Assembly (NCBI GenBank): GCA_963734845.1
Contig: CAVTIS010000004.1
Coordinates: 158,364 to 222,363 of the forward strand
Reading direction: 5' to 3'
Origin: an uncultured delta proteobacterium
GTDB lineage: Bacteria; Desulfobacterota; Binatia; Binatales; Binataceae
DNA length: 64,000 nt
The notes below the pieces were generated by a model. The model was given only the letters and a program-made list of their open reading frames with translations. It ran no database searches and was not told the DNA's origin. A program made the translations under genes and the position numbers. This document shows, in pieces, positions 55,151-58,666 of this stretch; position 1 is the first letter of the stretch; every line of letters begins with the position of its first letter.

Positions 55151-58100
55151 TCACCACGAATCGACGTGCGGGCGCTTCTTGCCGGTGCGCGGCGCGGGCG
55201 GCGGCGCCGAGCGGAGCCCCGTCAGAATCCAGCGGCGCGATTCGACCGGGTCGATCACGTCGTCGAGTTCGAAATGCGAGGCGCTGTTGAGCGCCTTACC
55301 CTGCTGGTACATTCGCGCCACCATCTCTTCGAACAGCTTCTTGCGCGCGCCCGGCTCCTCGACCGCCTCCAGTTCCTTGCGATAGCCGAGCTTGGTCGCG
55401 CCCTCCAGCCCCATCCCGCCGAACTCGCCGGTCGGCCATGAGACCGTGAAAATCGGAGTCTTGAAGCTCCCCCCGGCCATCGCTTGCGCGCCCAATCCGT
55501 AGCCCTTGCGCAGTACGATAGTGAAGAACGGCACGCTGAGGTTGGCGCCCACGATGAACATCCGTGCGGCGTGGCGCACCAATGCGGTCTTTTCGATCTC
55601 CGGTCCCACCATGATGCCGGGCGTGTCGCACAGGAAAAGCAGCGGCAGGTCGAACGCGTCGCACAGTTGCATGAAGCGGGCGGCCTTGTCGGCGCCGTCG
55701 CTGTCGATCGCGCCAGCCAGATGGGTGGGGTTGTTGGCGATTACGCCGAGCGGGCGGCCTTCGATTCGCACCAGCGCGGTCACCATCCCCAGCCCGAAGT
55801 GCTGGCGCAGTTCGAGCACCGAGCCGGTATCGGCGAGCGTCTCGATCACCGCGCGGACGTCGTAGATGCGCAGGCGAGTCTCCGGAATGATTCCGCGCAG
55901 CAGGCGCTGATCGGCGCATTCCCATCGGCCAATTGAGCCCTGGAAGTAGGCGAGATATTTTTTCGCGACGCGCACTGCCTCGGCCTCGTCGGCGACCGGG
56001 AGGTCGACCACTCCGTTAGCCACCTGCACACTCATCGGTCCGATGTCCTCGGGGCGGAAGATCCCAAGTCCGCCGCCCTCGACCATCGCCGGACCGCCCA
56101 TCCCGATGTTCGAGTTGGCGGCGGCGATCACCACGTCGCAGCATCCAAGCAGCGCCGCGTTGCCCGCGAAGCATCGCCCCGAGTTGATCCCGACCATTGG
56201 CACCAGGCCGCTCAGCTTGCCCCAGTAATGGAACGCCGGAACGTCGAGCCCTGAGAGCCATAGCCCGTCGGTGTCGCCGGGACGTCCGCCGCCGCCCTCG
56301 GTGAAGAACACCACGGGCAGGCGCTGCCTGGCGGCGATTTCGAACATGCGGTCCTTCTTGCGATGGTTCTGTTGGCCCTGGGTGCCGGCGAGCACGGTGT
56401 AGTCGTAGGACATCGCGACGCATTGCGCGCGGGAATCCTCGAACAGATCGCCGTTGACCCGGCCGATTCCGGCGACCAGTCCGTCCGCCGGGGTGTTTTT
56501 CATCAGGTCGTCGAGCGCGCGGCGGCGCCGCTGCGCTGCGAGTACCAGCGCCCCGTACTCGACGAAGGTTCCCGGGTCGCAGAGGTCTTCGACGTTTTCG
56601 CGCGCGGTGCGCTGATGGGTTTTTCGCCGACGCGCGACCGCCTCGGGCCGTGCGGGGTCGAGCCCTTTGGCATGGCGCTCGTATACCTCGGCCAGGTCGG
56701 GGCGGATACGGTCGAGGTCGACTTTTTCGGCCTCGGCTGCCGCAACTGTTTGAACTTCGGCCTCTTCGATGAATGCGAGCGGATGGCCCTCGAAGATCGC
56801 GTCGCGTTCGGCGACCGCGATTTGCCGCACCACGCCGCTCCTATGCGCGCGGATGACGTGCTCCATCTTCATCGCTTCCATAACGAATAACTGTTGGCCC
56901 TGGCGCACCAGTTCACCCTCGCGGACGTCGATGGAGACGATGGTTCCCTGCATCGGGGCTGCGACCGCAACCGTGTTTTCCGGGCCGGTGATCTCGTGAT
57001 GCGCCCGGTCGTCGCTTTCTGCCGTTGCGGCACTTGCTGCCGGCGTGGACCCCGGCGTCGAATTGACCGCGCTCTTGCCATGGCTCAGCACCGCCAGCGG
57101 ATCGAGCGAGTCGATTTTGGCACCGGCCAATTTGCCGGAACCCGGCGATCGCCTGTGCTCGCCCCGACGGGCCGGCTTGGCCGCGCTGGACGCGTCGGCG
57201 AAAAAGAGTTGGCGCTGAGTTGAATTCGCCGCGGCGACAAGCTCGGCGATGTGTTCCTCGACGAAGCGCGTATAGAGCCGGTTCGCGGCGAAATCGGGAT
57301 GCCGCAGCAGGCTCTGAAGAAATCCGAGATTGGTTGCGACGCCCTCGATCCGGAACTCGCTCAGTGCGCGACACGCGCGCGTGACCGCCGCGGCGAAATC
57401 CGGCGACGGCGAGTGCGCTATAAGTTTGGCCAGCAGCGAGTCGAAGTTCGGGTTGGTCGTGTAACCCGCGTAGGCAAACGAGTCCACGCGCACGCCGGGC
57501 CCCGACGGCGCTTCGAACGCGGTCAGCGTCCCGCCCGAGGGCTTCGCCGTGCCGTCCGCGCTCATCGACTCCATGTTGATGCGCATTTGGATCGCGAAGC
57601 CACGCGGCGGCGGAATATCGGCCTGGCGCAGGCCAAGCTGGGTGAGCGTGCTTCCTCCGGCCAACTGCAACTGCAACTTGACCAGGTCGATGCCGGTCAC
57701 TTCCTCGGTCACCGTGTGCTCGACCTGCAAGCGCGGGTTGGCCTCGATGAAGGCGAACTCCGCGTTGTCGTCCCGCGCGTCGGCGTCGAGCAGAAACTCA
57801 AACGTGCCAAGGCTGTCATAACGAACCGCCTCGGCCATGTGTACCGCCGCCGTGGTGAGGCGGGCACGCAAGCGCTCGGAGAGTTCGGGACTGGGAGCGA
57901 CTTCGACCAGCTTCTGATTGCGCCGCTGGATGGTGCATTCGCGCTCCCACAGATGGCTGACGCTGCCGGAACCGTCGCCCGCTACCTGGACTTCGAGATG
58001 GCGCGCCCGTGGCATCAGGCGCTCGACGTACACCTCAGGATTGCCGAAGGCCGCCCGCGCCTCGGACTGGCATCGCCGGTAGGCTTCGTCCAGTTCGTCG

Positions 58101-58666
58101 AGTCGGCTCACCGCGCGCATCCCGCGGCCGCCGCCCCCGGCGACCGCCTTGACCATCATCGCGCCGCCGTCGCCGAGCGATGCCAAAAACTCGCGCGCCT
58201 CACTGAGACTGGTCGCGCCCGCGGTGCCAGGCAGCAATGGCACCCCGAGGCGCTCCGCCAACTCCCGCGCACGCACCTTGTCGCCGAACAATTCGAGCAC
58301 CTCGGGCCGCGGGCCGACGAATTTAACCCCTTCTTCGGCCGCGCGGCGCGCAAAGCCGGCATTCTCGCTGAGGAATCCATAGCCGGGATGGATCGCGTCG
58401 CATCCGGCCGCCTTCGCGATCGCCACGATCTGCCCAATGTCGAGATAGGCGGCGGCGCCGATGCCGGTAAGCGCGCGGGCCTCGTCGGCCTTGCGCGTAT
58501 GGAGTGAGCGGGCGTCGTCTTCGGAAAAGACGGCCACCGTGCGGATACCCAGCTCGGCAGCGGCGCGCATGATGCGGATGGCTATTTCGCCGCGATTGGC
58601 GACCAGAAGACTGCGGGGAAGCATGGGCGATGCTGAGGTTCCTCCTATACGCATCTCTTTGCGCAT
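55151..58666 (-). CDS. single-chain multi-domain acyl-CoA carboxylase (biotin carboxylase - BCCP - carboxyltransferase)
   Basis: BC N-terminus [17 protein letters not shown]; biotinyl domain EAMKMEH; PccB/AccD-like CT (GRVNGDL...[14 protein letters not shown]...[14 protein letters not shown]); probable start MLPRS at about 58624. Confidence 0.85.

Follow-up and report, generated by a model that had tools for sequence, protein, structure and literature searches.

Is a single polypeptide that joins a biotin carboxylase (BC), a biotinyl carrier (BCCP) and a carboxyltransferase (CT), with the carrier in the middle, a new design of acyl-CoA carboxylase? The question is raised by an uninterrupted open reading frame of 1171 codons on the minus strand, at positions 55151-58666 of the window, the 64-kb stretch of DNA analysed here. 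The window was translated in both directions, and the plus-strand translation across these positions contains many stops. The initial annotation described the arrangement as minimal and as different from the described single-chain carboxylases. Our results indicate that the protein is very probably an ordinary single-chain acyl-CoA carboxylase of the LCC family (long-chain acyl-CoA carboxylases) and not a new design.

Domain architecture and family membership

The order BC-BCCP-CT with a central BCCP is confirmed far above chance by the Pfam domain calls, which agree with the fusion as it was originally read, including the AMKM carrier and the PccB-type CT. In the numbering of the 1171-aa reading frame, the HMM boundaries place BC at 18-471 (Biotin_carb_N 18-124, CPSase_L_D2 129-343, Biotin_carb_C 360-471), BCCP at 568-632 (Biotin_lipoyl, with the biotinyl lysine K600 inside EAMKME) and CT at 684-1147 (Carboxyl_trans, E 7.7e-71). 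BCCP and CT lie about 50 residues apart, and no Pfam match to a BT domain or to the central domain of acetyl-CoA carboxylases (ACC) was found over the whole protein.

Each module appears to keep its catalytic equipment, as judged from conserved residues. The BC domain has the ATP-grasp fold (57254-58615, minus strand; PF00289, PF02786 and PF02785; residues 4-457 of the 1157-aa product discussed below) and is 51% identical to the BC of 4RCN, the LCC of M. avium paratuberculosis. In an alignment with E. coli BC it retains counterparts of K116, K159, GGGG163-166, H209, E276, E288, N290, R292, Q294, E296 and R338. The BCCP domain (56771-56965, minus strand; PF00364) is 34% identical to that of 4RCN. 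Its biotinyl lysine, encoded at 56867-56869, is K586 of the 1157-aa product; this residue and the preceding M585 do not vary among 30 diverse members of the family. The CT domain (55226-56617, minus strand; PF01039), which is of the LCC type, is 63% identical to that of 4RCN, and its motifs EGGGGRPGD and DTPGxMVGP are invariant in the same 30 members.

Family membership is shown by the end-to-end match to the 1093-residue chain of 4RCN, with 1122 bits and the same domain order (query 18-482 aligns to 4RCN_A 3-472 and query 567-1148 to 4RCN_A 490-1070). With this match, and with 5FIF and 5H80 in the family as well, the claim that the protein differs from described single-chain carboxylases does not hold. 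In the BCCP-CT region, the match to 4RCN reaches 720 bits and that to 5FIF 615 bits, compared with no more than 221 bits for any other CT in the PDB, including those of the PccB, AccD and 12S types, so that LCC-type CTs score about three times as high as any of these. By this gap in bit scores, the CT domain appears to group with 4RCN and 5FIF and not with the PccB, AccD, 12S or MCC-beta clades.

Structure prediction points in the same direction. An AF2 monomer model built from 30 diverse sequences has a mean pLDDT of 84.9 and a pTM of 0.52, with the BC domain above 90; a model based on few aligned homologues, all with 74% identity or more, reached a pLDDT of 58 and was discarded. When the former was searched with Foldseek, 4RCN came first with 1146 aligned columns, followed by 5FIF and 5H80 with TM scores of 0.94-0.97. 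Superposition on 5FIF gave a TM of 0.94-0.97 and an rmsd of 1.7-3.0 A.

The start of the gene and the extended linker

The protein is probably somewhat shorter than the reading frame. The coding sequence most likely runs from the third in-frame ATG, at 58624, to the TGA stop at 55151-55153 (55151-58624, minus strand), giving a product of 1157 aa. A database protein (P0001) has exactly this sequence; the product also contains the full-length match to 4RCN and begins at the methionine whose equivalent is the start in all close homologues. Because of this identity and shared start, the 14 additional codons of the longest reading frame (58625-58666, minus strand), an extension found in no homologue, are most likely a non-coding 5' leader. 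A Shine-Dalgarno-like AGGAGGA is present at 58640-58646, 16 nt from the ATG. This is a long spacing, and the start call therefore leans mainly on the homologues. The figure of 1171 aa given at first is thus correct as a count of codons, and the protein most likely has 1157 residues, which lies within the range of about 1000-1200 aa that goes with the single-chain LCC/YCC family.

Between BC and BCCP lies an extended low-complexity linker (56966-57253, minus strand; residues 458-553 of 1157). It is predicted to be disordered, with pLDDT values below 50 at residues 471-505 and 512-545 of the AF2 model. The spacer from the TN motif of BC to the biotinyl lysine measures 154 aa, the longest sampled; it ranges from 74 to 125 aa among 27 distant representatives of the family, and 4RCN has 86 aa. 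The protein can hardly be called minimal, as it had been, when its spacer is the longest sampled and the chain of 4RCN is shorter overall. We considered whether the linker might be a degenerate BT domain and rejected this idea, as the linker alone has no Pfam match, to a BT domain or otherwise, at E values up to 10 and is predicted to be disordered.

Within the otherwise variable linker lies a conserved motif, AGAKIDxxDPLAVLxHGK (57074-57127, minus strand; residues 500-517 of 1157). D508, P509, L510, A511, V512 and L513 show no variation among 53 close homologues, and of the 120 nearest clusters listed, 115 carry the motif. It is also scattered among distant members (P0121, P0133, P0199, P0222, and the loci L003 from a Pseudomonadales MAG and L012 from Bryobacterales), and is absent from 4RCN and from most other family members compared. 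The motif region is probably disordered, judging from the model, in which pLDDT rises slightly at residues 506-511. We suggest that the motif marks a subfamily of LCCs with members in Binatia, in some of the Pseudomonadales and Bryobacterales, and elsewhere; it is the sole mildly new feature of this protein.

We can only speculate, and think it rather unlikely, that this is a functional short linear motif that alters the travel of the carrier domain in the subfamily. It might, for example, serve as a docking peptide and hold the tether against the BC or CT of a neighbouring chain, and so act as a minimal substitute for the 'hook' that the BT domain provides in PCC and MCC. The motif might instead bind a regulator. 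In either case, the movement of the carrier domain would be changed within the motif-bearing subfamily.

Proposed function, genomic context and distribution

We infer the mechanism from the LCC family. A biotin ligase would biotinylate K586 of the central BCCP, and the N-terminal BC would carboxylate the biotin using MgATP and bicarbonate. Flexible linkers would then let the BCCP swing to a CT active site between the CT domains of the oligomer, where the carboxyl group would be moved to the alpha-carbon of an acyl-CoA, yielding a 2-carboxyacyl-CoA (alkylmalonyl-CoA). LCCs are homo-hexamers that act on C2-C16 acyl-CoAs, with a Km for palmitoyl-CoA 350-fold below that for acetyl-CoA, according to PMC6491548, which paraphrases Tran et al. 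(2015, Nature 518:120). If the enzyme resembles 4RCN, we would expect a homo-hexameric holoenzyme with a CT core and domain swapping between chains, which would take acyl-CoAs of widely varying chain length and bind the long ones best. As the CT domain is only 63% identical to that of the characterised enzyme, the chain-length preference could differ.

The surroundings of the gene give few hints about its substrate. The carboxylase gene stands alone in the window and in close relatives, and comparison of the window with loci carrying a 92% identical (L002) and a 76% identical (L001) homologue revealed no neighbouring gene conserved across the three that would identify a pathway, and no conserved operon. 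The window and L002 share only a divergent glyoxalase and a fatty-acid desaturase, and the downstream slot is variable, being occupied by an IS110 remnant and a sulfatase in the window and by McrBC and IS1595 in L002. Within the 64 kb there is no second carboxylase paralogue, and no tRNA genes or Rfam families were found in the window. A GC-rich hairpin lies directly 3' of the stop codon (55123-55150, minus strand; core stem CCCCCGGC / GCCGGGGG), with an RNAfold energy of -25.9 kcal/mol in a 45-nt context, and is possibly the end of the transcript. A promoter and terminator scan near the carboxylase gene gave nothing useful; it did not flag the hairpin because the U-tract is weak (TTATAAAA).

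More can be learned from other lineages. Among 15 diverse loci with an LCC gene, genes for acyl-CoA dehydrogenase, SDR and enoyl-CoA hydratase are recurrent nearby, and in five, each from a different lineage (L004, L007, L011, L012 and L015), a family III CoA-transferase gene adjoins the LCC gene. These neighbours point to the catabolism of CoA-activated acids. They raise the question whether the enzyme, with fold and chemistry unchanged, acts physiologically on one particular non-fatty CoA thioester, for example of an acid activated by the family III CoA-transferase in a catabolic pathway, with the name LCC reflecting in-vitro behaviour only. For the family in Pseudomonas, the reported role is reportedly no more specific than 'utilisation of selected carbon and nitrogen sources', which would suit this idea, and the window itself has a family III CoA-transferase gene at 45745-46941. 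This gene is 8 kb away and non-adjacent, however, the carboxylase gene stands alone here and in its close relatives, and the sole biochemistry on hand is the broad C2-C16 activity. We regard a dedicated non-fatty substrate as a tentative and less probable possibility.

It seems very improbable that the enzyme is a housekeeping acetyl-CoA carboxylase supplying malonyl-CoA for fatty-acid synthesis, like those of Saccharopolyspora and Shewanella. Bacterial single-chain ACCs do exist (PMC6491548, PMC11602165), and acetyl-CoA is turned over by LCC enzymes (PMC6491548), but the 350-fold higher Km for acetyl-CoA (PMC6491548) speaks against such a role. Moreover, the known single-chain ACCs belong to other families (one has a central domain and a mass of about 200 kDa; the other, of about 170 kDa, differs in its domain order), and the CT domain goes with 4RCN and 5FIF and not with ACC-type CTs.

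The LCC-type fusion is common. BC-BCCP-CT is the architecture of all 120 of the closest 90%-identity clusters listed, and 54 of the best 150 representatives at 50% identity have at least 1000 aa, most matching over BC and BCCP-CT. Full-length copies are found in Proteobacteria, Actinomycetota, Acidobacteriota and Chloroflexota. The contigs that carry the uninterrupted fusion reach 1.67 Mb in length, and it is also present in isolates such as Bradyrhizobium, Variovorax and Lentzea. That the fusion is an artefact, a misassembly or frameshift joining an alpha (BC-BCCP) to a beta (CT) gene, is refuted by the uninterrupted fusion in these independent clusters, by the isolate genomes and by the identical fusion in the crystallised 4RCN chain, and nothing was found in its favour. 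The census also disposes of the novelty first attributed to the architecture, which is that of a common and characterised family (4RCN), spread across many bacterial phyla and with a holoenzyme structure published in 2015; it carries little discovery weight. The value of the result is rather one of annotation. Database names for the family are no more precise than 'carboxyl transferase domain-containing protein' or 'acetyl/propionyl-CoA carboxylase alpha subunit', and such proteins can be renamed LCC-family single-chain acyl-CoA carboxylases.

Comparison with known carboxylases

The two-subunit enzymes PCC, ACC, MCC and GCC use the same three modules and the same two-step chemistry, but on separate polypeptides (alpha = BC-BT-BCCP, beta = CT), with a BT domain between BC and BCCP that is not detectable in the single reading frame of the window. 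In examples such as S. coelicolor PccB (1XNV) and the PCC holoenzyme (3N6R) the CT fold is common to both (181-221 bits), although the identity of two-subunit CTs to the window CT is much lower than that of LCC. The mycobacterial 'LCC complex' (AccA3-AccD4-AccD5-AccE; PDB 9YX2, PMC13012033) shares name and chemistry with the family of the window protein. It is, however, hetero-oligomeric, with its alpha, beta and epsilon subunits on separate chains; AccD4 and AccD5 reach no more than 177-184 bits when compared with the query CT, and the common name 'long-chain acyl-CoA carboxylase' must not be taken to imply that the two belong to the same family.

The initial annotation referred to much larger single-chain enzymes, and these do exist. 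They are probably S. erythraea SACE_4237, a homodimeric ACC of about 200 kDa with a eukaryote-type central domain (PMC6491548), and Shewanella AccS, of about 170 kDa and with a different domain order (PMC11602165). Both are acetyl-CoA carboxylases serving fatty-acid synthesis (PMC6491548, PMC11602165), and both have all catalytic modules in one chain like the window protein, but they represent families other than LCC. Assignment to the eukaryote-type or actinobacterial homodimeric ACCs was considered and rejected, given 1157 aa and some 50 residues from BCCP to CT as against a mass of about 200 kDa or more and a non-catalytic central domain between those two modules. In Foldseek, human and yeast ACC are 13-18% identical to the window protein. 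The discussion in PMC6491548 gives a reversed domain order for LCC, which is contradicted by the sequence alignment with 4RCN.

The closest likenesses are found within the LCC family itself. 5FIF (CT) and 5H80 (BC) are separate domains of a 'single-chain bacterial carboxylase' of this family, crystallised as isolated domains only, reportedly the YCC from Deinococcus radiodurans (Hagmann et al. 2016, Structure). The former is about 53% identical to the BCCP-CT region (613.5 bits with the full-length query); the latter scores 509 bits against the window protein with a TM of 0.94. Like the window protein, 4RCN has BC, BCCP and CT on one polypeptide and neither a BT nor a central domain. It comes from an actinobacterium and the window protein from a Binatia-type bacterium, and the difference in length between the 1157 aa of the latter and the deposited chain lies in the BC-BCCP spacer, which is 68 aa longer here. 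Since this longer spacer carries a motif that 4RCN lacks, the geometry of the holoenzyme or its regulation may differ between the two.

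Gene and domain order of the carboxylase

The initial annotation described an acyl-CoA carboxylase of 1171 residues, and an uninterrupted frame of 1171 codons does occupy exactly 55151-58666. The frame belongs to the minus strand; translated on the plus strand, the interval has stops throughout. The start also has to be corrected. Translation from the third in-frame ATG (58624) gives a product of 1157 residues that is identical over its full length to a public database protein (P0001), and the equivalent methionine is the start in every close homologue. For these two reasons, the gene is most likely 55151-58624 on the minus strand, with a product of 1157 rather than 1171 residues. 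A strong GC hairpin (-25.9 kcal/mol) is found on the same strand directly 3' of the stop codon.

In the 1171-residue numbering, Pfam places a biotin carboxylase (BC), made up of Biotin_carb_N (18-124), CPSase_L_D2 (129-343) and Biotin_carb_C (360-471), before the biotinyl carrier Biotin_lipoyl (BCCP; 568-632) and the carboxyltransferase Carboxyl_trans (CT; 684-1147, E 7.7e-71). The biotinyl lysine is K600 (K586 in the 1157-residue product), within the biotin attachment motif EAMKME. The order BC-BCCP-CT in one chain, with the BCCP in the middle, is therefore borne out by both the domain positions and the attachment site. Equivalents of E. coli BC K116, K159, G163-166, H209, E276, E288, N290, R292, Q294, E296 and R338 are all present; the E. 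coli sequence used for this has the expected length and the expected residues at the compared positions. Across an aligned set of 30 family sequences, the biotinyl lysine is invariant, as are EGGGGRPGD and DTPGxMVGP, two motifs of CT. Judged from its sequence, the catalytic equipment of the enzyme is intact. By inference from the family, the BC domain would carboxylate the biotin on K586 using MgATP and bicarbonate, the tethered BCCP would swing across to one of the oligomer's CT active sites, and the carboxyl would pass there to the acyl-CoA alpha-carbon to give 2-carboxyacyl-CoA.

Relationship to the long-chain acyl-CoA carboxylases

The closest known structure is 4RCN, the crystallised LCC (long-chain acyl-CoA carboxylase) of M. 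avium paratuberculosis. It aligns in two collinear segments, residues 18-482 with chain positions 3-472 (BC) and 567-1148 with 490-1070 (BCCP and CT), and the identities counted from the printed alignments are 51% for BC, 34% for BCCP and 63% for CT. The next PDB sequence matches are 5FIF (613.5 bits; 'Carboxyltransferase domain of a single-chain bacterial carboxylase') and 5H80 (509 bits; 'Biotin Carboxylase domain of single-chain bacterial carboxylase'). When searched alone, the BCCP-CT region scores 720 bits with 4RCN and 615 bits with 5FIF, but at most 221 bits with any CT of PccB, AccD, 12S or MCC-beta type, and on these scores the CT domain is therefore assigned to the LCC clade. An AlphaFold2 model, based on an alignment of 30 diverse family members, has a mean pLDDT of 84.9, with BC and CT mostly above 90. 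Foldseek ranks 4RCN first with 1146 aligned columns; domain placement in the monomer model is arbitrary, which makes the overall rmsd large. The model superposes on 5FIF with a TM score of 0.94-0.97 (rmsd 1.7-3.0 Å) and on 5H80 with a TM score of 0.94. The protein is thus a new and so far uncharacterised member of the LCC family, which is known and structurally solved.

The layout had been thought different from that of described single-chain carboxylases. This view does not hold, as 4RCN shares the BC-BCCP-CT order and a census, which the initial annotation had itself named as the evidence against its reading, found a common and characterised family. A search of 5.8 billion proteins (E <1e-50) matched at least 8000. 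Among the best 120 of these, each from its own 90%-identity cluster, all 120 carry BC, Biotin_lipoyl and Carboxyl_trans, lengths are mostly 1130-1170 aa, and the entries with a named source are Candidatus Binataceae or Binatales. Of the 150 best representatives at 50% identity, 54 have at least 1000 aa, their match mostly split into a BC and a BCCP-CT stretch, and the remainder are mostly fragments. When a single genome was scanned for each species, full-length matches came from Pseudomonadales, Bradyrhizobium, Variovorax, other Beta- and Gammaproteobacteria, Caulobacteraceae and Parvibaculaceae, and also from Acidimicrobiales, Lentzea, Bryobacterales and Thermoflexaceae.

Possible substrate and genomic surroundings

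LCCs are already treated as a known group in the literature, where they are described as homo-hexamers active on C2 to C16 substrates, whose Km is 350-fold lower with palmitoyl-CoA than with acetyl-CoA (PMC6491548, summarising Tran et al. 2015). By analogy, the enzyme would be expected to form a CT-based homo-hexamer and to accept a broad range of substrates, with long chains preferred. The genomic context does not fix the pathway. The gene stands alone in the window; a locus with a 92% identical homologue (L002) has in common with it just a divergent glyoxalase and an upstream fatty-acid desaturase, and a locus with a 76% identical homologue (L001) has no common neighbour. In a set of 15 distant loci, all full-length, the LCC gene is directly adjoined in five lineages (L004, L007, L011, L012 and L015, beside the LCC-type match at 6001) by a gene for a family III CoA-transferase (PF02515), which in some of them has two domains and ~840-860 aa, and genes for acyl-CoA dehydrogenase, SDR and enoyl-CoA hydratase recur nearby. 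The window has its own PF02515 gene at 45745-46941 (plus strand), 8 kb from the carboxylase gene. The neighbours in the distant loci fit the catabolism of CoA-activated acids, and the adjoining CoA-transferase may hint at the family's physiological substrate. In a less likely reading that these neighbours also allow, the true substrate would be a specific, non-fatty CoA ester.

Directly downstream of the carboxylase lies a composite ORF of 1068 aa (51928-55134, minus strand). Its residues 56-141 (roughly 54712-54969) match Transposase_20 and come from an IS110-family transposase, of which a C-terminal fragment is present; a Sulfatase domain follows in frame (residues 315-730). We reject a fusion protein in favour of an IS110 remnant reading into a sulfatase gene, for which the ATG at 54428, giving a signal peptide, is the most likely start. 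Between the carboxylase and the metallo-beta-lactamase, PNPOx and HpaB genes there is a variable slot (51400-55150; 13500-21000 in L002), which holds the IS110 remnant, the sulfatase and a 151-aa ORF in the window, and McrBC, DUF1254/DUF1214 and an IS1595 transposase in L002. The slot appears to be a local hot spot for insertions. The 151-aa ORF (51458-51913, minus) and a 768-aa ORF (60595-62901, minus) have no match in Pfam or NCBIfam, and a 181-aa ORF (46952-47497, plus) has none in a Pfam scan. Elsewhere the window has the appearance of ordinary chromosome. The regions 17535-21077 and 30510-37958 (both plus) contain MetH, a full-length cobalamin-dependent methionine synthase of 1180 aa, and NuoG-like and NuoF-like iron-sulfur/flavoprotein genes, and a GAF-PAS histidine kinase is encoded at 21116-23284 (minus). 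Searches for tRNA genes and Rfam families across the 64 kb found none.

The spacer and comparison with other single-chain carboxylases

The BC-BCCP spacer, counted from the conserved 'TN' of BC to the biotinyl lysine, has 154 residues and is the longest in our sample, compared with 86 in 4RCN and 74 to 125 in 27 distant 50%-cluster representatives, so that the arrangement cannot be called minimal. The spacer is variable, low in complexity and predicted to be disordered in the AlphaFold2 model, and a Pfam search of it gave no match, the PCC BT domain included. It contains a sharply conserved motif, AGAKIDxxDPLAVLxHGK, which looks like a short linear motif. DPLAVL is invariant in 53 close homologues. 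Of the 120 closest clusters listed, 115 have the motif, which also occurs sporadically in distant members, among them a Pseudomonadales MAG and a Bryobacterales genome. It is absent from 4RCN and most family members, and this subfamily-specific motif is the sole mildly new element of the protein itself.

One sentence in the discussion of PMC6491548 gives the LCC domain order reversed, which the 4RCN chain contradicts, with BC at 3-472 and CT at about 590-1070. A multi-subunit assembly of mycobacteria, the 'LCC complex' (PMC13012033), has only its name in common with the single-chain LCC. The contrast initially drawn with much larger single-chain enzymes compares different families: the actinobacterial ACC of ~200 kDa has a central domain (PMC6491548) and the Shewanella AccS of ~170 kDa has another domain order (PMC11602165), and both belong to families other than that of the window carboxylase.
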